DNA of 64,000 nt, from the NCBI GenBank assembly GCA_964187785.1, contig OZ076409.1:37264001-37328000 (forward strand), read 5' to 3'. Both the position numbers and the translations under genes were made by a program. The notes under the pieces were generated by a model. The model was not told the origin of the DNA. It worked only from the letters and a program-made list of their open reading frames with translations, and did no database searches. Shown in pieces: positions 1-52,066 of this stretch. Numbering within the stretch: position 1 is the stretch's first letter; each line of letters starts with the position of its first letter. Source of the DNA: Amphiscolops sp. MND2022 (lineage: Eukaryota).

Positions 1-2
1 TA

Positions 3-3000
3 TCTAGCGCTATCCCAGAAGCCGATCTACGTAAAATCCGATTGTTAGCCCCTCAATCAATAATTAAAGAGGGCCCGGCACCCAACTTCCAGATTATGGT
101 AGCCAATGGACAGCTGGAGACTCCAAAGAGCACTGTTGAACTCAAATTCGAAGTCGGGGACATCGATTTCCACGAGATCTTCATTGTTATGGAAAAACTC
201 ACAAGTCCGTTAATTGGTCTCTCGTTCCTGCAACGGAACAATACCATACTGGACATGCGTCAAGGAGTTTTGAACTTCCCTTTCTTCTCCATGCAACTGA
301 AAACTGCTGACCACAAGTACACTAACGTCATGGAACCTATCTGTGCGCGGGAGGATATAACTATTCCCCCCAACGACAGACATATGGTTTCCATGTTCTC
401 ACAACTCTATGACGACACAAACGTCACTGGAATTCTTCAACCGAGCAATGACCTTGCAGAAGATGGTGATATAACCTTCTGCGCTGCTCTAGTCACACTG
501 ACCCAAGGTCAGGTATCAATTCACGTCAACAACTTCACTGACCAACCGTTCACCCTCAAAAGAGGTGCTCACATTGCCAATTTCTCTGTCCTCACACCAG
601 AGCAGATGAAATACGTCAAACCCATTGATCCCGTGACAACTTGGCACCTTTTGAAGGATAACCCGGAAAATGCTGCCTATTATGCCAGTAGCCTGATCAA
701 ATCCCCGAAAACTAACGATGATAGTGAGAACTACTGGTTCCCTACTCCAGAAGAACCAGGAGATCCTCAAACTCATACACCCATACAACAAAGAATCCTT
801 AGGGAACTACGAAATCTCCAAGATTTAGAGAAACTCAACCCTCAGGATGACCCTGAATCGCGGAAACAATTTCTTGCTAACTTTGACTGGACAGACTCTA
901 CGCTGAATCCAGCCGAAATTGCCCAAATTGAAGAATTACTTGTTGAATTTCACGACATTTTTGCACGACACCGTTTTGACATAGGTATGAACGAAGATTT
1001 CAAGGTCACTTTGACCCCTAAAGATGATTCCCCTGCCTATAGTCAAAGCTTACCTACTCCTATCAACCTCAAAGAAGATATCCTTGTAGAACTAGCACTA
1101 CTACATCGATATGGGATTATAACAACTCTCCCATTTTCCAAATATGCAAGTCCCATCTTTGCCCAGAAAAAACCTAACGGCAAACTTCGCCTCCTGGTTG
1201 ACCTCCGAAAGATCAACAACCTGATTTCTGACGATTACATCAACAACAACCATCCTGTCAGCACACTAACGGATGCTGCGCAGCACATGGCAGGCAAACG
1301 ATTATTTTGCAAACTTGATTGTTCTCAAGCATACCACTGCCTTCAGATGGCTGACCAGAGGTCAATCGAGATGCTGGCGTTCAATTTTGCCAGCAGAACC
1401 TTTGCCTATCGCCGACTTGCCCAAGGTCTAAGCAGAGCGCTGTCCGCATTCTCGAGCTTTATGCGCGAATACCTGGATAAAGTGATAAAAGCTGACCAAT
1501 GCGCTCAGTACGTAGATGATATTGGGATAGCTGCAAACGACGCCACTCAGCTCATCAACAACCTTCGAGCAACGTTCCAGTGCATCAGGACCGCTGGTCT
1601 CAAACTAACGATGCACAAGTGCCATTTCGGAGCCAAGGAAATCGACTTCCTGGGACGTACCATCACTCCTGAAGGGGTGCGGCCACAACGACCCAGGGTC
1701 CAGAATTTCTTGGAAAAGACCAAATTCCCTAAATCCAAGAAAGCACTTCAAAGATACTTGGGATTCTTGAATTACTACCGTAACTACATACCAAGGCTCT
1801 CAGAAAAACTCACACCGTTCTTCAAATTATTGAAAAGTGATGCCAAAGTCATGGTGACACCCGATCTGTTAGCGAAATTCACCGAGATCAACAAAGCTCT
1901 TGACCGATGTTGTGAACTGGCACTCAAACAACCTCTACCCGATAAACAGATAGCCCTGATGACGGACGCTAGTTTTTCGGCAGCAGGTTATGCGGTTCTC
2001 ATCGAGGACGATCCGATGGAAAAATATACTTCGACGCGAAAAGCCTTCGCACCCGTAGCATATGGATCCAAGACCTTTAGTCCAGCCCAACTGAAGATGT
2101 CCATTTATGCGAAAGAATTCCTAGCAATCTTCTTTGCATTTAAAGAGTTCGGCCATATCTTTTGGGGGACCCCGAAACCGGTGATAATACTAACAGACAA
2201 CAAGTCAGTCACTCGCTTTTTTCAAACAAAAATCATTCCACCTACATTGTGGAACGCGTGTGACTACGTTATGCAATTCAGTTTCACAATAGCCCATATA
2301 CCTGGCAAAAACAATACTGCCGCTGACTACTTGTCACGTCTAGAAATCTGTCCCAAAGAAAAACTCATACTCCGGATACGAGAAGATATTTCCACCACGC
2401 CCATTGAACTCAACGTCCAATCGGCGGGAGTCACTGAAGAGGAACAGATCTTTTATACAGAAGATGACGAGGAAACCGAAGAACAAATCTGGAAGCGCAA
2501 ACAAGATGCCAGGTCAAATCCCATGAATCAACCTCCTGATATTTTGCTAGATCATCTTAGCACTCATGATAATACACAATTCCAACCTCAAAATATACAA
2601 AAACTGACAAAACCAACCACCATGGCTATAGAACAACAGAATGACCTTATCTTGCATCAATTACGACTCAAACTGCAAAAAGAAGAATACTCTGAAACCA
2701 CCTTACAGCAAGATTCGCGCTACCGACATTACTGCCGTCAAATTGACCGTCTGTCCGTACATGATGACATCATCTTCAGAGACTACTACGATGAAACAGG
2801 AAGTGTCCAATTCCGCCAAGCATTATTACCGAAACATCTAGTCACAGAATTACTTCAATCACTACATGGTTCCGCGAACAAACATCCGGGAATCTCGAAA
2901 ATGCTGCATGAAATTCGACGAAAATACTACTATCCTGGAATTGCAAAAATCGTCAAAAAGTGGGTCCAAGGGTGTGAAATTTGTATAAAAGACAAAAGAG

Positions 3001-4496
3001 TCAGCAATGCATCCATAACACCCGAATTACTCAATTTGCCCGAATGGGATCTTGGTCCAGAAGACGCCCTACAAATTGACATTCTGCCCAACTTACCCCC
3101 AAGTGGAGGTTACGAAAATGTCATAACGGCTCTGGACGTGTTTTCGAGATATCTTTTTGCCTACCCCGTAACGGACGCTTCGGCCGTCAATACGGCAAAG
3201 GTCATTATTGATATCATGACAAAACATTCCTACTTGCCGACTACGCTGATCACCGACAAAGGGACTGCCTTTACGTCCAAACTACTAGAAGAAATTACCA
3301 AAATTTTAGGAATTCACCTTCGATGCGCGACCACAAAGCATCCTCAGACGATAGGCAAACTAGAACGCACTCATGCCAGCCTTAAGGGCAACCTCAAAAT
3401 GGCATCAGGCGAATACAGGCGCCAATGGCACAAATATCTCCCATTGGCTGTCCTTAATTATAACACGACCTATCATTCAAGTCTTGGATGCGAACCCACC
3501 CGAATTTTTCATGGAAGAGTACCCTATAATATCTTAGACCATCGGTTAGGATTAAATCCCAACCCAAAGATTACTCCAACGACGGATTTTGCTGAAGAAT
3601 TCCAAAGACGTACGCAAATACTAATTGATCAAACAAAGAAAAACATCATGCAATCATATTTAAAGTACAAAGAATATTATGATCGAAAGGCTAAGGCAGC
3701 TCCTCTACTACAAGGAGATTTTTGCTTCATTTTACAACCTTTAGCTGACCATCAAGGCTCTAAAATTCCATTTCGTGAATTTCGTTGGATCGGACCGTAC
3801 GTCATTGAAAAGGTTTTACCTAACGACAACTATATTGTTCGCAAACTTAGTTCTAACAAAACGCAGATTTTACACCGAATACGCCTTAGAAAATACATTC
3901 CCAATACTCCTTTGCAAGATAATCGTCCTGAAGGAAATTTACAAGCAGACGATGAAATTATTATTCCGCAAGATGATTTATACATCATTTCATGGGAGAC
4001 TAATTTTGATGATTTTCCTCCTCACTCTGAGCCACAGGTATTTCCCGACGAATTTCCTATTAATCCTGATGAACAGGATGCTATAGTTACAGATTTGGAC
4101 CTTCGGTCCACGCGACGGCAAGAAAATACTGACGCAACTGATACTCACTCACCCTCACGTGAAGTAGCCGAAGCGGACCTTCGGTCAGCAGGACGGCAGA
4201 CAAATACTGAGTCTGATAATTCCGGACAGTACGCGCGTGACCTACCTTATGAAGACCGTCAGTCCACTCGACGGCAACGAAGTACTGATTCCGAAAATGA
4301 TGACATAGCTAATCAGGACTTTTCTAGAGATGAAAATTCAGAAACTTCAACTTCTGGGGGGAACGATACAACCGTGCCCGATGTATTAATTGAAGAAACC
4401 GATGATTGTGTTGTAGAAAATGAAAGTCCTAGGGGAGGGAAATATAACCTACGTCCCAATCCTACCCCCAACTTCACTGATGAATACAGATACTAG
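3..4496 (+). CDS. pol: Gypsy Pol polyprotein (protease C-terminal part, dUTPase-like region, reverse transcriptase, RNase H, integrase, disordered tail); 5'-truncated by the window edge
   Basis: Frame is open from position 3 (SSAIPEADLRKIRL). Protease LIGLSFL motif. RT motifs LLVDLRKIN, KLDCSQAYH, LAQGL and YVDD (1509-1520). RNase H MTDAS and TDNKS. Integrase HHCC (LHGSANKHPG...CEIC) and D,D,E residues (QIDIL, ITDKG, LERTH). No stops. Confidence 0.97.
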   Translation, partial: SSAIPEADLRKIRLLAPQSIIKEGPAPNFQIMVANGQLETPKSTVELKFEVGDIDFHEIFIVMEKLTSPLIGLSFLQRNNTILDMRQGVLNFPFFSMQLKTADHKYTNVMEPICAREDITIPPNDRHMVSMFSQLYDDTNVTGILQPSNDLAEDGDITFCAALVTLTQGQVSIHVNNFTDQPFTLKRGAHIANFSVLTPEQMKYVKPIDPVTTWHLLKDNPENAAYYASSLIKSPKTNDDSENYWFPTPEEPGDPQTHTPIQQRILRELRNLQDLEKLNPQDDPESRKQFLANFDWTDSTLNPAEIAQIEELLVEFHDIFARHRFDIGMNEDFKVTLTPKDDSPAYSQSLPTPINLKEDILVELALLHRYGIITTLPFSKYASPIFAQKKPNGKLRLLVDLRKINNLISDDYINNNHPVSTLTDAAQHMAGKRLFCKLDCSQAYHCLQMADQRSIEMLAFNFASRTFAYRRLAQGLSRALSAFSSFMREYLDKVIKADQCAQYVDDIGIAANDATQLINNLRATFQCIRTAGLKLTMHKCHFGAKEIDFLGRTITPEGVRPQRPRVQNFLEKTKFPKSKKALQRYLGFLNYYRNYIPRLSEKLTPFFKLLKSDAKVMVTPDLLAKFTEINKALDRCCELALKQPLPDKQIALMTDASFSAAGYAVLIEDDPMEKYTSTRKAFAPVAYGSKTFSPAQLKMSIYAKEFLAIFFAFKEFGHIFWGTPKPVIILTDNKSVTRFFQTKIIPPTLWNACDYVMQFSFTIAHIPGKNNTAADYLSRLEICPKEKLILRIREDISTTPIELNVQSAGVTEEEQIFYTEDDEETEEQIWKRKQDARSNPMNQPPDILLDHLSTHDNTQFQPQNIQKLTKPTTMAIEQQNDLILHQLRLKLQKEEYSETTLQQDSRYRHYCRQIDRLSVHDDIIFRDYYDETGSVQFRQALLPKHLVTELLQSLHGSANKHPGISKMLHEIRRKYYYPGIAKIVKKWVQGCEICIKDKRVSNASITPELLNLPEWDLGPEDALQIDILPNLPPSGGYENVITALDVFSRYLFAYPVTDASAVNTAKVIIDIMTKHSYLPTTLITDKGTAFTSKLLEEITKILGIHLRCATTKHPQTIGKLERTHASLKGNLKMASGEYRRQWHKYLPLAVLNYNTTYHSSLGCEPTRIFHGRVPYNILDHRLGLNPNPKITPTTDFAEEFQRRTQILIDQTKKNIMQSYLKYKEYYDRKAKAAPLLQGDFCFILQPLADHQGSKIPFREFRWIGPYVIEKVLPNDNYIVRKLSSNKTQILHRIRLRKYIPNTPLQDNRPEGNLQADDEIIIPQDDLYIISWETNFDDFPPHSEPQVFPDEFPINPDEQDAIVTDLDLRSTRRQENTDATDTHSPSREVAEADLRSAGRQTNTESDNSGQYARDLPYEDRQSTRRQRSTDSENDDIANQDFSRDENSETSTSGGNDTTVPDVLIEETDDCVVENESPRGGKYNLRPNPTPNFTDEYRY
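2733..2755 (-). promoter_or_regulatory. GAC-N5-GTC-N5-GACGGCA motif (inside pol, between RNase H and integrase)
   Basis: Reverse complement reads GAC AGACG GTC AATTT GACGGCA. Confidence 0.6.
4098..4276 (+). promoter_or_regulatory. Three GAC-N5-GTC-N5-GACGGCA motifs at a 78-bp period in the pol tail
   Basis: Copies at 4098-4120, 4176-4198 and 4254-4276. Confidence 0.75.
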
Positions 4497-4708
4497 TCAG
4501 AACATGTAAATTCACTGGCCCAATGCAACTTTTGCTTTTTCAAACTATCTTTTATGGGCCCCGATTGACTTTTCAGACTACGGAAACTCCTAGACAAGTG
4601 TCAAGATGACACAACTATACAAACAAACATCAAACAATAATAAAACTGACAAATAGATGAATGAAAAACACTATTTCATCGATAAATACAAATGTACATA
4701 TAGTACAA

Positions 4709-7700
4709 TTAGGAGTCTTTAGCAAATGAACCAGATGGCAATTCACTATCTGATTGGCGCTTGATGGGTGAGTTTTTGGAACTGTTGGATGGAAGGCTCT
4801 TAGACTCACCACCGAATCGCAGCTTCTTCAACTTCCCATCCCGAGTTTCTGCCTGTCGCTTTATTGGCCCTGGCTTCAAAGTAGATAGGATGGTAGCTAG
4901 ACCAAAATGATCCAATCCATCCCATGGACTATACGTGTCTGAGAAAGCAACATTCCCAAATGTAGTCTCCAAGGCCAAGAAGCTAGTCGCTGAGGATGAT
5001 GTAGCGAGGGCATCGACACTCCGTCCTACATTGATGAAATATGACTGCACAGGGAAGATAGTGTCAACCAACTTACTTTTGGGGTCATCAGTACTGACTG
5101 GTCCAAATTTCACAATAGGCATCTCAGTGTAACTCTCATCTAGGCATAGGCAACTAAGTTGGAAGATTCGGGATAAAAGCGAACGGGACCGTAAAGCCTC
5201 GTGCCCAGAAATAAAGGAGACAGCATCGAAAATTATGACTCTAGGTTGTGTCATGTCTGGCATTTCTTTCCTCAACTCGTCGAGAAAGGATAAATATTCT
5301 TCAGTGAGAAGGGACTCATCCTCAGGCTGAAAGTAACCTCGAAGTTGGAAACACCTGAATAATTGCTTGAAACAGTATAAGGCTTGACTCAGTGGGGCAC
5401 AGAACATGATGTCGAGGTCGAAGGAACCTAAACCTTTGACGATGTCGGAAGTTAATTGGAGGTTGCTTTGGGCGGCATTAAACAAATAAGCAACGTAGCT
5501 ACGTCCCAAGCGTCCAAACTCCTCCTTATGGTCCTTCACGAGTTTGGGCAAGCTAGCCTTATTTCCGGACTTCTCACTCAATTCCTTCTCAGCCCTGATT
5601 TTGCATGCGACGTCGAGCCTCTGACCAAGTTTGGAACGTGCAATGAAATCAGTAACCACCAGTGCCCGGGCGTCGGATGATGACACGTTGAGGATGCCAG
5701 CTAAGTCAGATTCTTGGGGAAGACTTTTGGGTTTTATGCAACGTCGTCCCAGTTTGAACAGGTACAGGCACAATTGTCTGTAGATATGGAACCCTCGGTC
5801 TCTCCGCTCAGTCAAGTGGGGCACGAAACTCGTGGTATCTAAATGAGAAAGACTCATATTTATGGTGAAAACACGTAAGCGGAAGCTTTTAACGAATATC
5901 ACTAACAGTCACGGACTAGTCGGTAAAACAGTTCTAAACGACACAAGAACATCTCGTCATGTAACATTGCTCGCTCCAGATTTTGTGGCTGAAAAGAAGA
6001 TTTTCATGCAAATATGACTATGATGGACTTAAGGTCACAGTGACAGCAGAAACTCACCTGTTTCTTCACCCCCATCATTTCATGTGAAGGAGCATGAGTA
6101 TTGAGGAAAGCCGTCACACTAGCCCAGTTATTTAGCAGCTCTTGACACAAGGTAGGCAAAGTGTCCAGTTCAATCTGACATCTGCGAACAGCCTAAAGAA
6201 ATCACCTCGTTAAGTTACCAGCACTCATTGATCACAACAGTTGAAGAAAGCTGCATACTTTAGCAAGAACTGGAGTCATTAGCGTCCAATCACAATCTAG
6301 GCAGCCACTAAGGAAAACGATCAAATACTGAAGCACGGAGTGGAAGTCTATTCGTCCAAAGACGCTGTAACTCTTTTTGTGCATCAGCTTGGCAATGGAG
6401 AAATCGTCAAATCTTAGTGGACGTTGGAGACCATGCTTGCTGTAAGGTGAATTGTCAATCTGACGTATAGTTTCGAGAGTGCTTCCAGAACAGCAAACCA
6501 AGTTAGGCCGAGTGGAGAACGCGGCCATAACGGAACTAACGAGACTTAGTTCAGCTGAGGTCTGTCCCAATACCCGACCAGTCCGCTTCAAGAACACTCT
6601 GCACAATTCATCTTTTCTCCAGAACCGTATATAGACGAATAAGAACACTCCTTGTTTGACAAATTCTAATGCATAGTCTCCTGCTGCAACTACATGAGTG
6701 CCGATGTCATGGATAACTTGTAGAAACATGTGATGGAAGAGGATCTATAACAAAACAATGTGGTTAAGCATTGGTTAAGGGGAAAACTTACACAACTTAC
6801 AATCGAAAGGTTATCTTGACAAAAAGAATACTTACTGCTAATCGTTCTTTGCTCCAATCAAAGTCGGTGAACAAGGCCTGGTGGTTCACCACGACGCCAA
6901 CGTCTCGCCAGAAGTGTCTCAGGGTTCCGATGTCACCGTATGAGCGAAGATAGTGTCCCAGTACCGACATTTGGATCTTCACACGGCTTTCAGACGATGA
7001 GGCCATGTACTGAGTTCCCTGCATATAGTCCTCGTAGAAAGGAAGCTTTTCGCCGATGTCCACGAGTTCCGCCTCAATGAATTTGGGTAATTCCAGCTCG
7101 AGTTCGTAAGGCGTTAATAATTTCCCATCTCTACCTCGGACGTAATATTTAACTGCCCTGGTCACGGGATCGACTCTACTCATGTGCTCGTATCGCCACC
7201 GTTGGTCCTTCCTGAGATGACGCTCAGTGGCATGGTGACGTAAAATCTCGCGGGCCCCTCTGCCATAGATGGAAATATTGCCTTTACAAATTTGGCAATA
7301 AAATTTATAGCGATTCCAACGGGGGTCAACGGGACCTGAAACGAAAGTCTTCGTCCATTCCATACCTTTAAAGTATGCTTCTTTCATTATTTTGCACCCT
7401 CTTGGAACTCTGTGATTGCTCCTACCACTGTTGCGTGAAGTGCCTTTCTGAGTTTTCTTTCGCGTTTTTGGCTTGGTTTTCTCTGCGAGGGCTTCATCCT
7501 TAAGCGCAGCCAATGTTTGAGCCCCTGGACTGTCCATCTGGATTTGGCCAATAGGAGACGTAGGGTCAGTTCGACTGCATCCGGGAGGTCCGATAGGAGG
7601 TTGAATCACTGGCTGGCTATCAAAGTCAGAGTGCTCGTACACATACCCAAGACTAGTAACTTCTTCGTCAGTCCGCAGTGCCCCACTGGTATCGCTGGCA

Positions 7701-8917
7701 TTTCCAGAGGTAAAGCCAGATTGGGACCCCATGTCACTAGCAACGGAAGCTGTACGGTTGTTCCTAGGACCGGAAATAGGGAGAGGTGAACGAGTCCCAA
7801 GGTTTAGACGACTGGTCTGTTGTATCAAACTTTCCATCGCTCTTAGGGAACCCCTAACTGCCTCGTCTGCTACCACCTTCAATATGTGACTGACTTGCCC
7901 CTCGTTCCAGGCAATGGTGGAATGGCCGGGTGGTAGTTCAATAGGAGTTGCGGCTTCAAAGTACTCCTTTATCAGTGCTCTGCTTCCTCCAGACAAATGG
8001 GCTGTCCGAGTAGGAATTTCGGGAAAATCAGCTGATGTAACACTAGCGGCATCACTGACCCTAAAGTGGGTGGGGCGAGAGGGAGCAAGCATAGCGTCGG
8101 CAACCGTTGACCCAGCTAATCCAGCGGACTCATGATCAGTTTCACTAGAGGGATTCCGACCAAGTCTCAGGGTAGCAGTCACCTCAGGCTCCGACATTTC
8201 AAACTCATCAGTGGTTTCTATCCCTCCTTCTGAGAATGAATGACCTTCTGTCACGGGGACGGGAATGGAGTGAATTTTGCTTTCACCAGCAATCTTTACA
8301 CACAGTCTCTGTACTTTTGCTTCTGGAGGACCATAAGTCAATCCAGTGTTGCCTTTTGTAGGGAGCTCCGGAGAATCAAGGAATGTCACTTCAGGGATAG
8401 AATTGGAATCGCCCCCTTCTATACTTAGACTTTCCTGACCTGGCGTAAGCTCCAAAACTGCACTCGTGCTGGCTTTCTCGGTCCCAGCCGCTTGTTGTCC
8501 ACTGCTGCCGACTTCGGGAACATCGCCTAACTGTTCCCACTTCCTGGCAATGTACGCACCACAGCTTTCGTCCGTACTGCTGCTCTCTAAGTGCAATGTG
8601 GGTGGTGGTTGTGGAGGAGTATCATCATAAACGTCCAGGCTGTCGTTGGCCGGGACACATTCCTTGTCAGTGACTCGCAAATTCGCCTGACTGCTGGTCC
8701 CATTTGCTGGAGTGGTAAGTGTCCTGTCACCGTCTTGACTAAGAGAATTATTCGCGAGGCTCGGAGAGTTTTCCATAACGGACAGAGCAGAAACAAAGGA
8801 ATCACTGGTCTCCATTCGTTCTTCTTCTACACTCGACTGAGGAGGTTGGCCACTTGTCTCATTACCTAAATGAAATGAGATAAAGAAACGCGGTTCACTT
8901 CCTGAATAAGAATCCAT
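4709..8917 (-). CDS. Antisense spliced accessory gene; predicted exons 8917-6836, 6744-6259, 6192-6058, 5988-5907, 5838-4709 (~1304 aa); disordered N-terminus, BED-type zinc finger, degenerate hAT-transposase-like region
   Basis: Four GT-AG introns (6835-6745 GTAAGT..TATAG; 6258-6193 GTATGC..TTTAG; 6057-5989 GTGAGT..TTCAG; 5906-5839 GTTAGT..TTTAG) join three separate long ORFs and two small exons in one stop-free frame (phases 0,0,0,1). FYCQICK...ILRHHATERH zinc finger at ~7215-7305. The start codon is uncertain because there is a possible acceptor near 8867. Confidence 0.8.
6026..6048 (+). promoter_or_regulatory. One-mismatch motif copy inside a predicted intron
   Basis: GAC TTAAG GTC ACAGT GACAGCA within intron 5989-6057. 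Confidence 0.55.
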
Positions 8918-10383
8918 CTAGCCGCATTTGAGAAAATTCTTCCGGAAGTTATTTTGACTCAATGTTCACGCTTATAGCAAACATTTCACGATGGAGGAAG
9001 TAATTTAGTTAAATTTCGAGCCCTGATCAAGCCTAAATTTAACACTGTCAATAAAGAACCAACCTGATGTTGTTTCCATGGAGAATGACAGAATTGATGT
9101 GACTCAGTTTCTGAATAGAGAAGATCCGAAATCACAATGTGTTAGTTGTTCCAACTGATCCACTGTCTCTGTCGCTAAGACAATCCGCGCAGCTGTGTAG
9201 TTCTCTCCTGTTGAGGCAAATATAATTGGCAAGAGAATTCGGTAATTTGTCTGGGATATAAGATCGGACTAATAGTCGAACAAACAGCACAATTCAATAG
9301 GCAAGTAGGATGTAATTGCAAAGTAGAGAGGCTTGATTCACAAGGAAATTTGACACTCAAGGTCAGAGAGACTACTTGGAATACTAGGTATAACAAATAG
9401 CTCAAGTGATACTACTTGAGGGAACAAACTATGAAGTGCGATCAATGCTAACTGCAATTGAACAATGTATGTGGACTTAACGTCAGCTTGACGGCAGTGT
9501 ATTACTAGTTCACAATTAAGTAATAACCAACCAGTACTAACGAATTGGACGACGAGTCATCATGACGGCACAACGTTACTAGTTACCAAATGTACTTTAT
9601 TTCACTTCCTCTACTCTGTGACTACTCTAATGACTAAACACTACTTCTTGCCACTAATTTAGAGTCTCGGAATTTCTATTATTATTATTATTATCATTAT
9701 TACTATTATTACTGGTAATAGTACACTTATTATTATCAATATTATTATCACCATTACATTTCATTTAACTATAATTTGGATGTCGTGGCTACATGTAAGA
9801 CCTTCGTTTATGTTTCCATCTCCTCCTTTATTCACAGTACATGGTATGGAACCTGCCAGTGAAATATTCATGCACTCATATCTGTTTCATTTTAACTCAT
9901 TCTTTTCCCCTAAAAAGGGCATCGATTTCTTTATTTCATTTCATATTCGAAGAATTACTCGCTATATTTTACCAATCAATCTAGCGTCACCTGATTGGCC
10001 GCCTTAACTATTGCCGTCGAAGGGACTGAAGGTCTTTCAAGTTAATTGTTGACGGAGAATTAAGAAGAACAACACTTAAATTGTCAAGCATCACCTTTGA
10101 AGTATGAAGTAAAACAACTTGAAGAGGCAATTAACAAGCTTCGCAGATAAATTGCTTGAAAATTATTTGAGATTTTACTCTTAATCAAAACCTAAAAAGG
10201 AAAACTTGAAACTATGATTTGGGAGAAACCCCGCGCTGTATCCCCGCTAAAATTGGGGTTGGACCTAAGGTCAACTGGACGGCACAATTTCATTCATCGC
10301 CCTAACAATTTCAAAACCAGTAGACTGCTTCTGAACTGCTCAAAATTGCACGAAAATTATTTCTATCACGATACTCGCTGGAA
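8918..10383. promoter_or_regulatory. Putative bidirectional promoter region with four motif copies and inverted CCAAT boxes
   Basis: Lies between divergent ORFs. Motifs at 9474(+), 9548(+), 10012(-) and 10262(+). CCAAT and ATTGG at ~9972-9998. Confidence 0.5.
9677..9757. repeat. Imperfect (ATT)n microsatellite
   Basis: tattattattattattatcattattactattattac... Confidence 0.85.
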
Positions 10384-11187
10384 ATGGCATTACAGTTTGA
10401 CACTGAGGGTATAAATGGACCATTAGTGAGTCTTTCCTATCGATCTTCCGACGAAGAAATGGAGGTAGATTCCATCCAATCAGTACATGATAGCGACGAT
10501 GACGACATTCAAGTAATAGCCTGTTACTCCGAAAATCAGGAATTTCCGCCACAGCTGACAGCAGGTAGAGCTATGACTACGGACTTATCTGACTGCCTGG
10601 GTTATTTAAGCTTACCGGAAACTATTTCGGAAAGTTACTTTACCGAACCGACAGAAGACCTCATCAATTGGTTCGTTGGAAGTCCACCGTCAACCTACGC
10701 CGGGGTACAGCCGCAACGACATCCTATAGCTCAATGCAGCCAACTTGACCCAGTGTCTTACTCGCCATTGTCGCCGCCACTGATCGATCAATTTCCCAAC
10801 TATGCACCCGAGGTCAATAATCAAGAGGTCGAAGTAGAGCCGTCATGGGCTAGGAACCAACACATCACTGGCCTGGGCATCAGCGCAAGCGGACAATGTG
10901 GGCAGCCCAATAACGTACTCTACGGCGACTGTGTCGTCTGTGGGAAATCATTCCAGGCGATAAAGGAAGAGATGACACTCGGCTTTCTAGAAAGTACCCA
11001 CGTTCCCGGGGAGACGTATGAACAACGACAAGCGAGACGGCGTGCCTTCGAAGCTGGAATGAGAGCCGGATCATTCATCATAATCCCCCGGGGAGTGTCG
11101 CAGGCGGCCGCCTGTGACGGAATATTATACCAAGTCGGACCCGAAGACGATAACACTAATCCCGGACCGGGCGTACTGCCTATTTGA
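10384..11187 (+). CDS. Orphan accessory ORF (267 aa) of the LTR element; acidic N-terminus, CxxC, basic helix
   Basis: Uninterrupted ATG-initiated, GC-richer ORF in AT-rich surroundings, flanked by copies of the element motif; contains DDDDIQVI, CVVCG and RQARRRAF. Confidence 0.65.
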   Translation: MALQFDTEGINGPLVSLSYRSSDEEMEVDSIQSVHDSDDDDIQVIACYSENQEFPPQLTAGRAMTTDLSDCLGYLSLPETISESYFTEPTEDLINWFVGSPPSTYAGVQPQRHPIAQCSQLDPVSYSPLSPPLIDQFPNYAPEVNNQEVEVEPSWARNQHITGLGISASGQCGQPNNVLYGDCVVCGKSFQAIKEEMTLGFLESTHVPGETYEQRQARRRAFEAGMRAGSFIIIPRGVSQAAACDGILYQVGPEDDNTNPGPGVLPI

Positions 11188-11298
11188 AAGAAAACTCCAC
11201 AATACATTGATTATTTAATTAGCAATCTTCTCATGCACTTTAGTTCATTCATTTGTTGTTATTCTTTTCTACATGTAAATATGAAGTCTTATTAATGT

Positions 11299-12458
11299 GA
11301 CTCAAGGTCACCTTGACGGCATGAATAATCATATTTTGATGCAATCTTATGTAAATTAGTTGTTGAATTACATTTATAATAATGATGTGAACTAGTACCA
11401 AAAGGTGCAAAACGCTGTACAAGCAGTTAATTTGAATGATGTTGATAACAACAATAGAAAGCAAGATGGCTACTCAAGTGAAAGGAAACGCGTTCAACTG
11501 GTACGCTGCTGCCGTCCAGTTGACGCATAGTCACTTTGCTTCTATCCAATCACGGCGCTACATTTAGTTATAGTTCAATGCCGTCATGCGGACGTTAGGT
11601 CCGATTAGTTAACGCATGTAGTATTAAACCTGTGGCAGCATGAAAATCACCGTTAACATGTAGTTGTTATTAACCAGTATGTTGCTTCTATTTATAGAAC
11701 CTATGACGTGTAGTCATATGACACCCAGTTACTATATTTAGAATTGTGATGTAATAGTTATTTTTAATAATGATGTCATTACTATTTTTAATCAATGACA
11801 CCCCAAATACCGTATGTCATGCTGTAGTTAGTATATATATGTAAGTTTCAAGTAATATTCAATCATTCAATACGATAATCTCAATACAAACCGTTCTGTT
11901 ATACGCTTTCAATTCAACAATCTACTATTGAACAAAACCTTCTTTTGATATGCCCTCAACTAGAAGACAAAAGGCGAAAGAGAAACGTTCAAGGCAATCC
12001 GACATAATGTCTGATATTGAAAATCTAGATGTGATGCTCGGAAATTATTCAAACACTGAAATTAGGGACCAAAACGCAGTAGATGAAATAGAGATTGACC
12101 CTGAGTCAAATAGACGGCATCAAGGTTTTAGCCATGAGGAAAGTAATTATAGGTCTCTTTTGAATGCAAATTTGAGTGAGAATAGTGAAGTTACAGTAGA
12201 AACCAGTAGAGCAATCAGTTCGGAAATTTCTTCACAAATGTCAAGGAAATTGGAAGAAATGAAATCTGACCTAAATTCCCATATTATGGAGGTAATAAAC
12301 TCTGCTATTGATGAGAAAATACTACCTAGCATCGAAAACGTCATAGTAAATCATAGGGAGCGCAAAAACACAAAGTTGGACCTTCGGTCAGATGGACGGC
12401 ATCCGAGTAGAAACGTCCCTATGGACCAGACTTTGGACCTTGGGTCATATGGACGGCA
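11299..12458. promoter_or_regulatory. Six motif copies upstream of and within the candidate LTR
   Basis: Copies at 11299(+), 11510(-), 11579(-), 12097(+), 12379(+) and 12436(+). Confidence 0.75.
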
Positions 12459-12598
12459 TAAAAATAAATTCAGCCAACAGGTCCAGGACTCAAGAGAGAA
12501 TTTTCCTAGACTAAACACAACAGTAAATAACCTTCCAAGTCATCAAATGGAATGTTCAGGAGATTCTGAACAGAGTGAAAATGAAGAAGGTTATGACA
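11815..12598 (+). repeat. Candidate 3' LTR (~784 bp)
   Basis: Bounded by the 6-bp inverted repeat TGTCAT...ATGACA (TG..CA), with a TATA-like TATATATAT at ~11832. The partner LTR is outside the window, so the 5' boundary is unverified. Confidence 0.55.
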
Positions 12599-32299: not shown

Positions 32300-35200
32300 T
32301 CACTGGGCAAACTGTCGAGAAAAAGTCGATACTGGCAGGGCAACCAACAAGCACCTGCATAAAAAAGCACCATTCACAATAAAACGTCAAATGAATGATG
32401 TCAAAAACCATGTTGGATGTCTCTCGAAGTCCATCAAAAAAGCAGATCAGGACCTCGAAAATATCGATTCTATAGTCTTGGCTCGCAAACTGAAAAACAG
32501 TCTACACAGACAGGGCTGCCAACAAGCAGGTGCATGAAAAAAGCCCCATTCACAAAAACAAATCAAATGAATGATCACAAAAACCATGTTGGATGTCTTT
32601 CGAAATCCATCAAAAAAGCAGATCAGAACCTCGCAAATAACCATTTTTAGTCTTGGCAGGCCAACTGACGAGCAGTCGACACTGGCAGGGCTACCAACAA
32701 GGAGGTGCAAAAAAACCATTCACAATATCACATCAAATGATTGAGCACAAAAATCATGTTGAATGTCTCTCTGAGTCCATCAAAGAAACAGATCAGGTCA
32801 TCATATTCAGATCAGGACCTCGGGAAATTTCTGATTTTTTAGTCTTGGCTCGCAAACTGAAAAACAGCGACACTGACAGGGCAACCAACGAGCAGGTGCA
32901 TGAAAAAAGCCCCATTCACAATTAAACATCAATTGAATGAGCACGAAATCCAAGTTGAATGTCTCTCTGAGTCCATCAAAGAAACAGATCAGGTCCTCAT
33001 ATACAGATCAGAACCTCAAAAAATCTGTTTTTTTACAGTTTTGGCTGGCCAATTGAGGAACAGTCGACATTAGCACTAGTACTAACGAGCAGGTGCAATA
33101 CAAAATACCATCCAAAAAAAACACATCAAATGAATGATCACAAAAACCATGTTGGATGTCTCTCGAAATCCATCAAAAAAGCAGATCAGGACATCGAAAA
33201 TATCCAATTTTATAGTCTCGGCTGGCCAATTGAAAAACAGTCGACACTGGCAGGGCTACCAACAGCAGGTGCATGAAAAAAGCCCCATTCACAATGAAAC
33301 ATCAAATGAATGATGTCAAAAACCATGTTGGATGTCTCTCGAGGTCCATCAAAAAAGCAGATCAGGACCTCGAAAATATCCAATTTTATAGTCTTGGCTG
33401 GCCAACTGAAAAACAGTCGACACTGGCAGGGCTACCAACGAGCAGGTGCATGAAAAAAGCCCCATTCACAATGAAACATCAAATGAATGATGTCAAAAAC
33501 CATGTTGGATGTCTCTCGAAGTCCATCAAAATAGCAGATCAGGACATCAAAAAAATCCGTTTTAGTCTTCGCAGGTCAACTGAGAAACAGTTGACACTAG
33601 CTGCACCACCAACGAGCAGGTACAAAAAAAGCTCCATCCACAAAAATAAAAGTGAAGAAAGACCACAAAAACCAAGTTGAATGTCTGAGTCCATCAAAGA
33701 AACAGATCAGGTCATAATATTCAGATCGGAACCTCAAAAAATCTGTTTTTTTACAGTTTTGGCTGGCCAATTGAGGAACAGTCGACATTAGCACTAGTAC
33801 TAACGAGCAGGTGCAATAAAAAGTACCTTCCAAAAAAAACCCATCAAATGAATGATCACAAAAACCATGTTGGATGTCTCTCGAAATCCGTCAAAAAGCA
33901 GATCAGGACATCGAAAATATCCAATTTTATAGTCTTGCCTGGCCAACTGAAAAACAGTCGACACTGGCAGGGCTACCAACGAGCAGGTGCATGAAAAAAG
34001 CCCCATTCACAATGAAACATCAAATGAATGATGTCAAAAACCATGTTGGATGTCTCTCGAGGTCCATCAAAATAGCAGATCAGGACATCGAAAAAATCCG
34101 TTTATAGTCTTCGCAGGTCAACTGAGAAACAGTTGACACTAGCTGCACCACCAACGAGCAGGTACAAAAAAAGCCCCATCCACAAAAATAAAGGTGAGGA
34201 ATGACCACAAAAACCAAGTTGAATGTCTCTGAGTCAATCAAAGAAACAGATCAGGTCATAATATTCAGATCGGAACCTCAAAAAATCTGTTTTTTTTTTA
34301 CAGTTTTGGCTGGCCAATTGAGGAACAGTCGACATTAGCACTAGTACTAACAAGCAGGTGCAATAAAAAGTACCCTCCAAAAAAAAACACATCAAATGAA
34401 TGATCACAAAAACCATGTTGGATGTCTCTCGAAATCCATCAAAAAGCAGATCAGGACATCGAAAATATCCAATTTTATAGTATTGGCTGGCCAACTGAAA
34501 AACAGTCGACACTGGCAGGGCTACCAACGAGCAGGTGCATGAAAATGCCCCATTCACAATGAAACATCAAATGAATGATGTCAAAAACCATGTTGGATGT
34601 CTCTCGAGGTCCATCAAAATAGCAGATCAGGACCTCGAAAATATCCAATTTTATAGTCTTGGCTGGCCAACTGAAAAACAGTCGACACTGGCAGGGCTAC
34701 CAACGAGCAGGTGCATGAAAAAAGCCCCATTCACAATGAAACATCAAATGAATGATGTCAAAAACCATGTTGGATGTCTCTCGAGGTCCATCAAAATAGC
34801 AGATCAGGACATCGAAAAAATCCGTTTATAGTCTTCGCAGGTCAACTGAGAAACAGTTGACACTAGCTGCACCACCAACGAGCAGGTACAAAAAAAGCCC
34901 CATCCACAAAAATAAAGGTGAGGAATGACCACAAAAACCAAGTTGAATGTCTCTGAGTCAATCAAAGAAACAGATCAGGTCATAATATTCAGATCGGAAC
35001 CTCAAAAAATCTGTTTTTTTACAGTTTTGGCTGGCCAATTGAGGAACAGTCGACATTAGCACTAGTACTAACAAGCAGGTGCAATAAAAAGTACCCTCCA
35101 AAAAAAAACACATCAAATGAATGATCACAAAAACCATGTTGGATGTCTCTCGAAATCCATCAAAAAGCAGATCAGGACATCGAAAATATCCAATTTTATA

Positions 35201-37497
35201 GTCTTGGCTGGCCAACTGAAAAACAGTCGACACTGGCAGGGCTACCAACGAGCAGGTGCATGAAAATGCCCCATTCACAATGAAACATCAAATGAATGAT
35301 GTCAAAAACCATGTTGGATGTCTCTCGAGGTCCATCAAAATAGCAGATCAGGACCTCGAAAATATCCAATTTTATAGTCTTGGCTGGCCAACTGAAAAAC
35401 AGTCGACACTGGCAGGGCTACCAACGAGCAGGTGCATGAAAAAAGCCCCATTCACAATGAAACATCAAATGAATGATGTCAAAAACCATGTTGGATGTCT
35501 CTCGAAGTCCATCAAAAAAGCAGATCAGGACCTCGAAAATATCTGTTTTTATAGTCTTGGCTGGTCAAATGAGAAACAGTCAACACTGGCGGGGCTACCA
35601 ACAAGCACCTGCATAAAAAAGCACCATTCACAATAATACATCAAATGAATGAGAACAAAAAACCATGTTGGATGTCTCTCGAATTCCATCAAAAAAGCAG
35701 ATCAGGACCTCGAAAATATCTGATTCTATAGTCTTGGCTCGCAAACTGAAAAACAGTCTACACAGACAGGGCTGAAAAAAGCCCCATTCACAATAAAACG
35801 TCAAATGAATGATGTCAAAAACCATGTTGGATGCATCTCGAGGTCGATCAAAAAGGCAGATCAGGACCTCGAAAAGATCTGATTTTATAGTCTTGGCTCG
35901 CCAACTGGAAAAGTCGACACTGGCAGGGCTACCAACGAGCAGGCGCATGAAAAAAAGCCCCATTCATTATGAACCATCAAATGGATGAGCACGAAATCCA
36001 AGTTGAATGTCTCTCTGAGTCCATCAAAGAAACAGATCAGGTCCTCATATTCAGATCAGAACCTCAAAAAATCTGTTTTTTTTTACAGTTTTGGCTGGCC
36101 AATTGAGGAACAGTCGACATTAGCACTAGTACTAACAAGCAGGTGCAATAAAAAGTACCATCCAAAAAAACACATCAAATGAATGATCACAAAAACCATG
36201 TTGGATGTCTCTCGAAATCTATCAAAAAGCAGATCAGGACATCGAAAATATCCAATTTTATAGTCTTGCCTGGCCAACTGAAAAACAGTCGACACTGGCA
36301 GGGCTACCAACGAGCAGGTGCATGAAAAAAGCCCCATTCACAATGAAACATCAAATGAATGATGTCAAAAACCATGTTGGGTGTCTAACGAGGTCCATCA
36401 AAAAAGCAGATCAGGAACTCGAAAATATCCAATTTTATAGTCTTGGCTGGCCAACTGAAAAACAGTCGACACTGGCAGGGCTACCAACGAGCAGGTGCAT
36501 GAAAAAAGCCCCATTCACAATGAAACATCAAATGAATGATGTCAAAAACCATGTTGGATGTCTCTCGAGGTCCATCAAAATAGCAGATCAGGACATCGAA
36601 AAAATCCGTTTATAGTCTTCGCAGGTCAACTGAGAAACAGTTGACACTAGTTGCACCACCAACGAGCAGGTACAAAAAAAGCCCCATCCACAAAAATAAA
36701 GGTGAGGAATGACCACAAAAACCAAGTTGAATGTCTCTGAGTCAATCAAAGAAACAGATCAGGTCATAATATTCAGATCGGAACCTCAAAAAATCTGTTT
36801 TTTTACAGTTTTGGCTGGCCAATTGAGGAACAGTCGACATTAGCACTAGTACTAACAAGCAGGTGCAATAAAAAGTACCCTCCAAAAAAAACACATCAAA
36901 TGAATGATCACAAAAACCATGTTGGATGTCCCTCGAAATCCATCAAAAAGCAGATCAGGACATCGAAAATATCCAATTTTATAGTCTTGGCTGGCCAACT
37001 GAAAAACAGTCGACACTGGCAGGGCTACCAACGAGCAGGTGCATGAAAATGCCCCATTCACAATGAAACATCAAATGAATGATGTCAAAAACCATGTTGG
37101 ATGTCTTTCGAGGTCCATCAAAATAGCAGATCAGGACATCGAAAAAATTCGTTTTAGTCTTCGCAGGTCAACTGAGAAACAGTTCACACTAGCTGCACCA
37201 CCAACGAGCAGGTTTAAAAAAAAGCCCCATCCACAAAAATAAAAGTGAGGTATGACCACAAAAACCAAGTTGAATGTCTGAGTCCATCAAAGAAACAGAT
37301 CAGGTCATAATATTCAGATCGGAACCTCAAAAAATCTGTTTTTACAGTTTTGGCTGGCCAAATGAGAAACAGTCAACACTGGCGGGGCTACCAACAAGCA
37401 CCTGCATAAAAAAGCACCATTCACAATAAAACGTCAAATGAATGATGTCAAAAACCATGTTGGATGTCTCTCGAAGTCCATCAAAAAAGCAGATCAT
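32300..37497. repeat. ~177-bp satellite array with higher-order repeats
   Basis: GCAGATCAGG recurs at 33181, 33357 and 33534. Three or more monomer variants recur in ~540-bp and ~720-bp blocks. Confidence 0.95.
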
Positions 37498-38059
37498 GCA
37501 ATGCATTTTAAATCTTATTCACCTTCTCTAAAAAAAAAATTCTGAAGGGAATAAGATCTAAAATCAATGCATTTTAGATCTAATTACCCTTCTCTGAACG
37601 GAATAAGATCCAAAATTTCAGGATGGAAATGAGATCTAAAATCAATGCATTTTAGATCTTATTCTCCTTCTGTAAAGAATAATTTCTGAAGGGAATAAGA
37701 TCTAAAATCAATGCATTCTAGATCTTATTCCCCTTCTCTAAAGAATAATTTCTGAAGGGAATAAGATCTAAAATCAATGCATTTTAGATCTTATTCTCCT
37801 TCTCTAAAGAGTAATTTCTGAAGGGAATAAGATCTAAAATAGATGCATTTTAGATCTTATTCCCCTTCTCTGAAAGGAATAAGATCTAAAATCATGATTT
37901 TAGATCTTATTCCCCTTCTCTAAAGAATAATTTCTGAAGGGAATAAGATCTAAAATCAATGCATTTTAGATCTTATTCCCCTTCTCTGAAAGGAATAAGA
38001 TCTGAAGGGAATAAGATCTAAAATTTCAGGACGGAAATCAATCTAAAATCAATGCATTT
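37498..38059. repeat. ~66-bp palindromic minisatellite
   Basis: AAGGGAATAAGATCTAAAATCAATGCATTTTAGATCTTATTC... at 37689, 37755 and 37821. Confidence 0.9.
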
Positions 38060-49995: not shown

Positions 49996-51583
49996 AAGTT
50001 TTTTTTTCAGCTGTCATAGTTGTCGCCTTTCTTGAAACAACTTTCATAAACGTTTCGTGAAAAAACTTCTCAGATGTGAGATTTCTTCGCTGAGCGGCTA
50101 GAGCATTGGCTTGATATACCATAAGGCGCCAGTTTGATACTCGATCAGGAGGTTTTTTCATGTTTGCAGAATTGAGCTAGGTCACTGCACAGATTTTGTC
50201 GTTTTTTATCATTTCACCAAAAAGTCCTGTTTGAGTTTTTTTATCTTGTCACAGAAGTTTTTTTCTCCAGCTGTCATAGTTGTGGCCTTTCCTGGAACAA
50301 CTTTCATAAACGTTTTGTGATAAAATTTCTCAGATGTTAGACTTGTTGGCTGAGCGGCTAGGGCATTGGCTTGAAAGACCATAAGGCGCCACTTTGATAG
50401 TCGATCAGGAGGTTTTTTCAAGTTTGCGGAATTGAGCTAGGTCAAAGGGATTTTTTGACACTGCACAGATTTTGTCGTTTTTTTATCATTTCACCAAAAA
50501 GTCCTATTTGAGTTTTTTGATCTTGTCACAGAAGTTTTTTTCTCCAGCTGTCATAGTTGTGGCCTTTCTTGGAACAACTTTCATAATCGTTTCGTGATAA
50601 AATTTCTCAGATGTGAGACTTGTTGGCTGAGCGGCTAGAGCATTGGCTTGATAGACCATAAGGCGCCACTTTGATAGTCGATCAGGAGGTTTTTTCATGT
50701 TTGCGGAATTGAGCTAGGTCAAAGGGATTTTTTGACACTGCACAGATTTTGTCGTTTTTTATCATTTCACCAAAATGTCCTATTTGAGTTTTTTGATCTT
50801 GTCACAGAAGTTTTTTTCTCCAGCTGTCATAGTTGTGGCCTTTCTTGGAACAACTTTCATAAACGTTTCGTGATGAAATTTCTCAGATGTGAGACTTGCT
50901 GGCTGAGCGGCTAGAGCATTGGCTTGATAGACCATAAGGCGCCACTTTGATAGTCGATCAGGAGGTTTTTTCATGTTTGCGGAATTGAGCTAGGTCAAAG
51001 GGATTTTTTTGACACTGCGCAGATTTTGTGGCTTTTTATCATTTCACCAGAAAGTCATATTTGAGTTTTTTGATCTTGACACAGAAGTTTTTTCTCCAGC
51101 TGTCATAGTTGTGGCCTTTCTTGGAACAACTTTCATAAACGTTTCGTGATGAAATTTCTCAGATGTGAGACTTGCTGACTGAGCGGCTAGAGCATTGGCT
51201 TGATAGACCATAAGGCGCCAGTTTGAAGCTCGATCAAGAGGTTTTTTCATGTTTGCAGAATTGAGCTAGGTCAAAGGGATTTTTTTGACACTGCGCAGAT
51301 TTTGTGGTTTTTTATCATTTCACCAGAAAGTCATATTTGAGTTTTTTGATCTTGACACAGAAGTTTTTTCTCCAGGTGTCATAGTTGTGGCCTTTTTTGA
51401 ATAACTTTCCTAAACGTTTTCGTGATAAAATTTCTCAGATGTGAGACTTGTTGGCTGAGCGGCTAGAGCATTGGCTTGATAGACCATAAGGCGCCAGTTT
51501 GATACTCGATCAGGAAGTTTTTTCATGTTTGCAGAATTGAGCTATGTCAAAGAGATTTTTTTGGCACTGCACAGATTTTGTCC
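49996..51583. repeat. ~277-bp tandem repeat, ~5.8 copies
   Basis: GAAGTTTTTT..CAGCTGTCATAGTTG at ~49996, 50254, 50531, 50807, 51084 and 51361. Confidence 0.95.
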
Positions 51584-52066
51584 TTTTTAGTCGGCGTTTT
51601 TCTTAAGAAAAAAGCCCGACTATTACAGTCACTCGTATTTTTTTATTTAAGACAGACTCGAAAGCGACGAACGTTAAAATTAACGTTCAACTACTAAATA
51701 AGTACTAAACTACTGGACCGCTAAAGGCAAACGGGGAGCGCATTCATTTACTTTTTAAACGTTACATACAAGCCCGGACGGGACTAAAGTTCCCCCCCCT
51801 TTCGATTTTTTTTTCGGCGCTGTGAGACTTTTTTTCGAAATTTTTTTTATGTCCCCAAAGGGTCCCCCCTTTGAGTTTTTTGTTATTTTGCTACAGAATG
51901 CGTGTTTATAAATCAAAAAGGATCCCCCTTTTTACATTTTTTGGCACTGTGCGACATTTTCTGAAAGAATTTTTTTTTCGAAAATTTCAAGTTTTTTTCC
52001 AAAAAAAATGTTTTGCGCTTTTTGAGCCTTAGATATAGCGCCGACTTGAGACGTTCCCGTCTTGTT
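51584..52066 (+). mobile_element. Helentron/DINE-1-like element (intact reference copy)
   Basis: TTTTTAGTCGGCG..GCCCGACT 5' fold-back; 3' AGCGCCGACT plus AGACG-TTCC-CGTCT hairpin plus TGTT; T-rich insertion site. Confidence 0.8.

Follow-up and report, generated by a model that had tools for sequence, protein, structure and literature searches.

A composite motif dispersed over a Ty3/Gypsy retrotransposon of Amphiscolops is conserved between sister families and varies by family at one position

The window analysed here is a 64,000-nucleotide stretch of the genome of Amphiscolops sp. MND2022 (contig OZ076409.1, positions 37,264,001 to 37,328,000), and its first 12,598 bases belong to a retrotransposon that carries many copies of a composite motif, GAC-N5-GTC-N5-GACGGCA. 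Self-comparison of the window together with 8 kb of upstream sequence showed that the element is 15,919 bp long and that its 5' end lies 3.3 kb upstream of the window. It is bounded by two long terminal repeats (LTRs) of 1,504 bp each, which are 100% identical and have TG..CA ends (TGTCGC...ATGACA). Counted upstream from window base 1, the 5' LTR spans bases 3,320 to 1,817. The element is flanked on either side by GAGGG, a target duplication of 5 bp. The element is a Ty3/Gypsy LTR retrotransposon; the first-pass annotation of the window had proposed one of the Gypsy kind, and this is borne out by the direct LTRs, the target duplication and the order of reverse transcriptase, RNase H and integrase in one open reading frame (ORF). 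In the 1,497-residue pol frame, Pfam matches were obtained to RVT_1 (residues 389-554, 9.5e-23), RT_RNaseH (646-756, 1.7e-15), Integrase_H2C2 (943-998, 1.9e-15) and rve (1019-1114, 2.6e-12), and a dUTPase domain (113-194, 9.7e-07) is located on the N-terminal side. The gag product matches DUF1759 with 25.8 bits against a cut-off of 25.4, and zf-CCHC with 17.5 bits, which is below the cut-off of 20.8. The gag reading frame opens inside the LTR and its first 222 codons are LTR sequence, therefore the R-U5 region is unusually long and protein-coding. After gag and pol follow three minus-strand ORFs (C, B and A, in window order) and a plus-strand frame, orfX, which reaches 90 bases into the LTR.

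The search for the motif on both strands of the window yielded 14 perfect copies, each exactly at the coordinate and on the strand reported in the first-pass annotation. Its statement that far less than one copy is expected by chance also agrees with the shuffling control, since 100 dinucleotide-preserving shuffles of the window gave a mean of 0.00 perfect matches and a maximum of 0. The whole element contains 21 perfect copies, six of them in each LTR. Only one copy with a single mismatch had been listed, at 6026 on the plus strand; it is real and ends with GACAGCA, but two further plus-strand near-copies, at 7557 (ending GACTGCA) and 8242 (ending GACGGGA), had been overlooked. The 11-base core GAC-N5-GTC-N5-GAC-NN-CA has 16 exact and five one-mismatch matches in window positions 1-12598, whereas no match was found in the remaining 51.4 kb (12599-64000) even with one mismatch allowed, which confirms the reported absence of the motif from that part of the window. 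The spacers were described as variable, and both spacers and flanks indeed differ from copy to copy, so a longer repeated unit does not simply account for them. Their described placing, in the linker between RNase H and integrase, the C-terminal tail of integrase, an intron-like gap, intergenic DNA and the LTR, was found as well. The identical spacers of the linker copy in all families are due to its position in coding DNA.

Base counts over 139 distinct sites extended the motif to about 34 bp, with the form tG-GACC-N3-GGTCA-N4-GAC-N-GCA followed by TACt six bases on. In these sites G is favoured just before the first GAC. Position 4 is C and position 8 is G, which completes a GACC-N3-GGTC palindrome; A occupies position 12, G is found at position 21 in 118 of the 139, and a T-A-C-T block covers positions 30-33. 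The sole uninformative position of the last block is position 20 (G in 65 sites, T in 39, C in 25 and A in 10). The TACt block was also considered as a splice donor of the opposite strand; it fits at 6026, but the intervening positions deviate from the donor consensus, and this explanation was rejected. The features of the element within the window are collected in Table 1.

Table 1. Window coordinates of the genes, repeats and motif copies of the retrotransposon
Feature	Position in window	Strand	Remarks
pol ORF	1..4496 (start 684 bases upstream of window)	+	dUTPase, reverse transcriptase, RNase H, integrase
Motif copy, linker between RNase H and integrase zinc finger	2733..2755	-	spacers identical in all families
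Three motif copies, 78 bp apart (4098, 4176, 4254), integrase C-terminal tail	4098..4276	+	in frame, D-x-x-S-x-x-R-Q
Antisense ORF C, helical domain	4712..5908	-	conserved in E2, E3, E4, E6
Motif copy ending GACAGCA, gap between antisense ORFs B and C	6026..6048	+	
Antisense ORF B, putative middle exon	6235..6744	-	conserved in E2, E3, E4, E6
Antisense ORF A, 706 residues	6800..8917	-	S/T/P/acidic N-terminal half, basic stretch, finger domain
C2H2-like finger with conserved surroundings	7187..7357	-	W..F...CxxC...H.....H, then RKDQRWRYEH
Core copy ending GACTGCA, within antisense ORF A	7557..7579	+	
Two motif copies 74 bp apart, intergenic, upstream of antisense gene start	9474..9570	+	
Motif copy adjoining CCAAT/ATTGG boxes (9975-10000), upstream of orfX	10012..10034	-	
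Motif copy immediately upstream of orfX	10262..10284	+	
orfX, conserved sense accessory ORF, 287 residues	10324..11187	+	last 30 codons are the first 90 LTR bases
3' LTR, 1,504 bp	11095..12598	+	identical to 5' LTR
Three U3 motif copies (11299+, 11510-, 11579-)	11299..11601	both	
gag ORF start in LTR, 222 codons	11932..12597	+	three in-frame motif copies (12097, 12379, 12436)

The genome-wide distribution of the motif follows that of the element. In the 1.07-Gb genome 3,919 perfect copies were counted, against five for a backwards-read control pattern; the 11-base core gave 10,696 matches against 175 in the control, and versions ending with GACYGCA gave 2,814 against 24. Among the perfect copies 100 were listed, and all 100 lie inside related elements, which were identified in fetched regions or, as for the places at 8.89 Mb and 24.9 Mb, by their spacers. 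Both results answer the question of enrichment raised by the first-pass annotation in the positive and support the specificity of the motif to this retrotransposon superfamily. The antisense finger domain gave 8,076 first-look candidates in the genome, and all 150 that were scored are at least 78% identical, many of them within reading frames that stay open for about 700-746 codons. At six further places in the genome the identity to this copy is 98-99%, and these numbers indicate that the family is abundant and that this subfamily is young. The sister-family comparison comprised eight elements (E1 being the element of the window) and seven small regions, of which S5 and S6 match the element solely through the LTR-borne end of orfX. 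Motif matches in metagenomes, considered as possible relatives, were set aside as chance, since the 119 loci hold a single match each; the 80 of them that were scanned for core sites had a median guanine-plus-cytosine content of 61%, and one had two core sites. A different repeat, found on contig C1 at 5424689, 8363757 and 8443209, carries GACTGA(T/C)TGTCCGAATGACGTCA and fits the 11-base core through its CRE-like TGACGTCA; by its spacers it is unlike this element family.

The conservation of the motif between families was determined by a BLAST comparison that placed the 18 core sites of E1 on the seven other elements. Six of these are diverged from E1 and gave 43 homologous site pairs with it. 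The eleven fixed bases were kept in 88-100% of the pairs, whereas flanks and spacers were kept in 40-91%, on average about 66%. In non-coding sites the fixed bases were kept in 77 of 77 cases and the flanks in 136 of 210, and the subfamilies retain the motif though they are otherwise only about 65-80% identical. The comparison of the two LTRs of single insertions gave another picture. In five elements they differ at 5 of 297 fixed positions and at 116 of 6,950 other positions, which corresponds to an odds ratio of 1.0. Because the motif is conserved between families, yet unprotected between the LTRs of one insertion, it is guarded only along the replicating lineage. This pattern argues that the motif serves the propagation of the element and not the host at the insertion site.

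The first-pass annotation had also described the 13 fixed bases as invariant. This is true within the subfamily of the window element, but position 20 and, to a lesser degree, position 21 differ in sister families. Between families no position is less conserved than position 20 (15 of 43 pairs), and its base depends on the element. It is G in 15 of the 18 sites of E1, 13 of 16 in E2 and 10 of 13 in E3; E6 has C in nine of 14, E4 has T in eight and C in three of 12, and in E8 ten T and three A were counted among 13. The association of the base with the element is strong (chi2 88.9, p 1.6e-12) and was reached by none of 5,000 label shuffles, whereas seven variable control positions are without element structure (p 0.4-0.93); a marginal value was obtained for position 0 (p 0.034), and position 21 is somewhat structured (p 7e-4). 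Many of the sites are homologous and have the same flanks, so each lineage has changed this base in parallel at numerous sites that were already present. The changes from G to T and from G to C are not CpG-decay changes, and the change from G to A may be one. This pattern points to a lineage-specific recognition of the motif.

The families are recombinant mosaics, as seen in the sister elements on contig C1 (loci L032-L041 and L051-L052). In E2, gag-pol is E1-like (96%), the antisense gene is E3-like (98-99%) and the end of orfX is E8-like (96%). The three U3 sites of E2 are of the T/A kind, nearly base for base as in E8, and its other sites have G; its two LTRs are 98.7% identical despite the mixed site types. 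E5 was initially regarded as a control element devoid of the antisense gene and was dropped, as its locus combines pieces that are oriented oppositely.

A candidate binder for the sites was sought among the proteins of the element. The antisense ORFs are open and conserved in the sister families E2, E3, E4 and E6. ORF A is joined in frame to ORF B by a GTAAGT donor and a TAG acceptor on the minus strand, while the join of ORF B to ORF C is less clear, and ORF C may be a gene of its own or belong to the antisense gene as its last exon. On the minus strand a donor-like site, CAG|GTGAGT (6050-6062), stands directly before the 6026 copy, and the equivalent place in E2, E3 and E6 is also donor-like (CAAGTAAGT, CAGGTAA). 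The product of ORF A has a long N-terminal half rich in serine, threonine, proline and acidic residues, then a basic stretch, then a conserved finger domain. The Cys/His spacing of the finger is CxxC-x16-H-x5-H, with W..F upstream; across 30 sequences W22, F26, C42, C45 and H62 are invariant and H68 is near-invariant. The finger region is about 90% identical between families, against 38-60% for the remaining protein. Its layout may resemble that of BED fingers; zf-BED was not among the Pfam matches reported. In the AlphaFold2 model of the finger, strands at 39-42 and 47-50 and a helix at 55-63 are predicted, with a predicted local distance difference test score (pLDDT) below 50 there.

Database searches placed none of these proteins in a described family. 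Pfam searches with antisense ORFs A, B and C and with orfX gave nothing above cut-off, and no hAT family was found by Pfam in the antisense proteins. The antisense protein had no match among Protein Data Bank sequence profiles and no usable match in the protein atlas; its family comprises at least 1,239 clusters at 50% identity (E <= 0.001), the members of which are without names. ORF C has 120 homologues, none of them with a name, and its AlphaFold2 model is a helical domain (pLDDT 70.7). This model had no Foldseek match at E <= 0.001, and its best VIA-align Z was 6.1. The Hermes transposase (8edg_A) was aligned to it with Z 5.8 and a root mean square deviation of 6.5 over 175 residues, which is below the level regarded as meaningful with this aligner for helical proteins. 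The other accessory protein, orfX, has an acidic stretch and a CxxC, and the tail that the LTR encodes is conserved also where the LTR is solo or foreign. Its C-terminal half is 96% identical between E2, a G-type element, and E8, a T-type one; because it is near-identical in elements of both types, orfX is a poor candidate for a determinant of specificity.

In U3 a CCAAT box lies between the sites 11510- and 11579-, and TATTTATA follows about 100 bp downstream, thus two of the three U3 sites flank a CCAAT box upstream of a TATA-like box. The antisense gene and orfX start divergently from a region of 1.4 kb, which contains four sites; one of these adjoins CCAAT/ATTGG boxes. The other sites belong to the gag leader, to the linker and the tail of pol, to ORF A and to the intron-like gap. 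Sense copies in coding DNA (4098-4276, 12097-12458 and one 504 bases upstream of the window) nearly all stand in one frame and encode D-x-x-S-x-x-R-(H/Q); a copy located 185 bases before window base 1 is out of this frame. The minus-strand copies of U3, which are untranscribed, are fully conserved in that orientation across families, which speaks for DNA, and not RNA, as the target.

The motif is selected along the element lineage, conserved throughout the family and family-specific at one position; that it is a docking site, most likely read as DNA, is inferred, as are the binder and an activating or anti-silencing function. A sequence-specific protein, probably an oligomer, would dock on the 34-bp double-stranded site, in which successive GAC/GTC/GAC blocks, spaced at an 8-bp period, have opposite orientations, as expected for subunits arranged head to head. 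The element would need this docking site to propagate. About 18 distinct copies are present per element, namely in the U3 promoter, in the LTR-borne leader of gag, in the linker and the tail of pol, in the antisense gene and in the intergenic promoter region from which this gene and orfX diverge. The most likely job of the site would be to switch on, or keep open, the transcription units of the element itself. The partner considered most likely is the antisense protein, with its acidic, serine/threonine/proline-rich half, its basic stretch and its single conserved C2H2-like finger, and the differences at position 20 would make the system partly private to each family. That the motif copies are dispersed double-stranded DNA sites for an oligomeric regulator, probably the antisense protein, and serve the transcription of the element is a plausible but tentative reading, and the antisense finger protein as the binder, which the first-pass annotation had also proposed, may be seen as the most economical guess, put forward with similar caution.

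Several observations weigh against this proposal. As one finger cannot read 23-34 bp, oligomerization of the antisense protein must be assumed. The finger itself is poorly defined, since Pfam zf-C2H2_ZN292 was matched only below the cut-off (20-21 bits against 27) in 18 of the 30 members, and its AlphaFold2 model has a pLDDT of 53. CCAAT boxes are not enriched near the sites overall (16 of 86, against 14.2 +/- 3.4 expected), and 77% of the copies (67 of 87) point along the sense strand, a bias that is not required of a pure DNA site. The version of each site tracks the ancestry of its recombination block. Because E2 mixes T/A-type sites in U3 with G-type sites elsewhere, the code is not strictly private, and elements of mixed type appear to be viable. 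Arginine or lysine at finger position 57 follows the G or non-G type of the sites in all six fetched elements; an apparent exception is the R-type element at 9.04 Mb of contig C1, where only core sites ending CA or TA were found (pattern matches only). One pattern match of this kind, at position 1885711 of contig C1, proved to be due to chance, as no element is present there. Position 57 was rejected as the specificity determinant on account of this apparent exception and of confounding by phylogeny. The suggestion made in the first-pass annotation, that sister families carry different motifs which co-vary with their finger, therefore stands in its first part, as the versions differ at position 20, but the co-variation of gene and sites is confounded by linkage because the families are mosaics, and the two are not separable.

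The sites may instead work as enhancers or promoter modules that respond to one host transcription factor or to several host paralogues, for example nuclear-receptor-like or bZIP-like ones, active in the tissue of transposition. LTR retrotransposons often carry sites of host factors, many copies of the motif hold AGGTCA-, TGAGTCA- or CGTCA-like cores, mosaics of mixed type such as E2 look viable, and in Pfam searches no element protein showed a recognised multi-site DNA-binding domain. The families would then be tuned at position 20 to different host paralogues. However, a host factor would be expected to have host targets, yet every one of the listed perfect copies lies in a related element; the spacers that complete the known host motifs vary freely; and the parallel change of one base at many sites in each lineage would require a different factor for each family. 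This explanation is the chief alternative and is considered possible, though rather doubtful. It is improbable that the motif acts in RNA, as a repeated export, packaging or protection signal of the sense transcript for an RNA-binding protein, in a Rev/RRE- or CERV-like manner. The excess of sense-facing copies, the single reading frame held by the coding-region copies and the ability of zinc fingers to bind RNA would agree with it, but the minus-strand copies in U3 and at 10012 are as strictly conserved as the others, and the palindromic alternation of the blocks suits double-stranded DNA. An RNA hairpin formed by GAC..GTC was also set aside, by eye from the sequences, on its stem of just 3-4 bp and its variable loops. 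The least probable explanation is that the motif overlaps the target of a KRAB-zinc-finger-type host repressor and that the changes at position 20 are escapes in an arms race, the rest being kept for another function: position 20 is less conserved than the neutral-looking flanks and is homogenised within lineages, as after a sweep, but some positive function would still be required to conserve the other bases, inserted copies decay at the background rate, and no sign of such a repressor was met, no search having been aimed at it.

If the element's own protein is the binder, a still bolder version of the docking-site proposal can be formulated, in which the antisense single-finger protein, of an undescribed family, would oligomerize on the approximately 18 sites and activate or de-silence the element, with one base re-coded per family so that every family would mainly serve itself; such a private circuit is regarded as rather unlikely. 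In Arabidopsis, the Mutator-like VANDAL transposons encode VANC anti-silencing proteins that target short motifs in non-coding regions, often in tandem, and both VANC binding and the loss of methylation were demonstrated experimentally (PMC5735166). It was proposed there that VANC proteins and their targets co-evolve, which allows a family to propagate with little cross-talk (PMC5735166). The VANDAL system shares with the present element the many motif copies over the element and the different versions in related families, and here too the copies accumulate in the own family and not elsewhere, as the genome-wide counts, the 100 listed copies and the absence from the other 51 kb of the window show. 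The present case differs in that it concerns an LTR retrotransposon instead of a plant DNA transposon, that its motif is composite (23-34 bp) and occurs also in coding DNA, and that the sister families differ at essentially one position (some at position 21) and not in a wholly different motif.

Other known systems are similar in part. The foamy virus Tas protein acts at the LTR and at an internal promoter, and human T-lymphotropic virus 1 (HTLV-1) has Tax-responsive 21-bp repeats and an antisense gene, HBZ. The accessory gene 3' of pol and the repeated sites in U3 and the internal promoter are like those of these viruses, and HBZ is a precedent for a nuclear factor encoded antisense. In contrast to the few, promoter-confined sites of the viruses, the copies here are found all along the element, also within gag, pol and the intron-like gap, and the antisense protein is without similarity to Tas, Tax or HBZ-type factors. 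In Drosophila gypsy, the insulator is a tight array of sites for the host protein Su(Hw), which takes up about 350 bp within the 5' untranslated region. The present element is likewise a Gypsy-type element with a dozen-scale number of copies of a zinc-finger protein site, the binder being here a predicted one, but instead of a tight 5' untranslated cluster the copies occupy both strands over 15.9 kb. The subterminal repeats of hAT and En/Spm (TnpA) transposons are located at the transposon ends and bound by the own transposase for transposition; they resemble the present motif in their many copies in both orientations for an oligomeric finger protein encoded by the element (putative here), and differ from it in being confined to the ends and in serving transposition.

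Arrays of factor sites in transposons, as well as regulators encoded by transposable elements in plant DNA transposons and complex retroviruses, are thus already known. Judged from the comparisons above, the present motif combines four properties: it occurs all over an LTR retrotransposon, it is kept between subfamilies, its copies have no protection once they are inserted, and one of its positions is re-coded in each family. In the literature, as far as its texts were accessible, no description of a motif combining all four was found. If the binder is the element protein, the approximately 10,700 sites and hundreds of gene copies would make a ready-made data set, which could show the evolution of private recognition and the origin of a new DNA-binding specificity. 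A private circuit, if true, would parallel in a retrotransposon what VANC does in plants, and it would offer a natural series of protein variants with their matching sites. If a host factor is the binder, the family would represent a very large and easily recognised set of its targets.

Several other repeats were observed in and around the window. The 94 bases just upstream of the 5' LTR (L031 4512-4605) match their own reverse complement at 82%. A satellite array with an A-rich strand occupies 32320-37496 and consists of 176-177-bp units, about 29 of them in overlapping rows, with 69-79% matches. A 276-bp unit is tandemly repeated in 5.1 copies at 50183-51588, with 95% matches, and at 37628-38024 an array of 50-68-bp units with an internal palindrome (AGATCTAAAAT..ATTTTAGATCT) is located.

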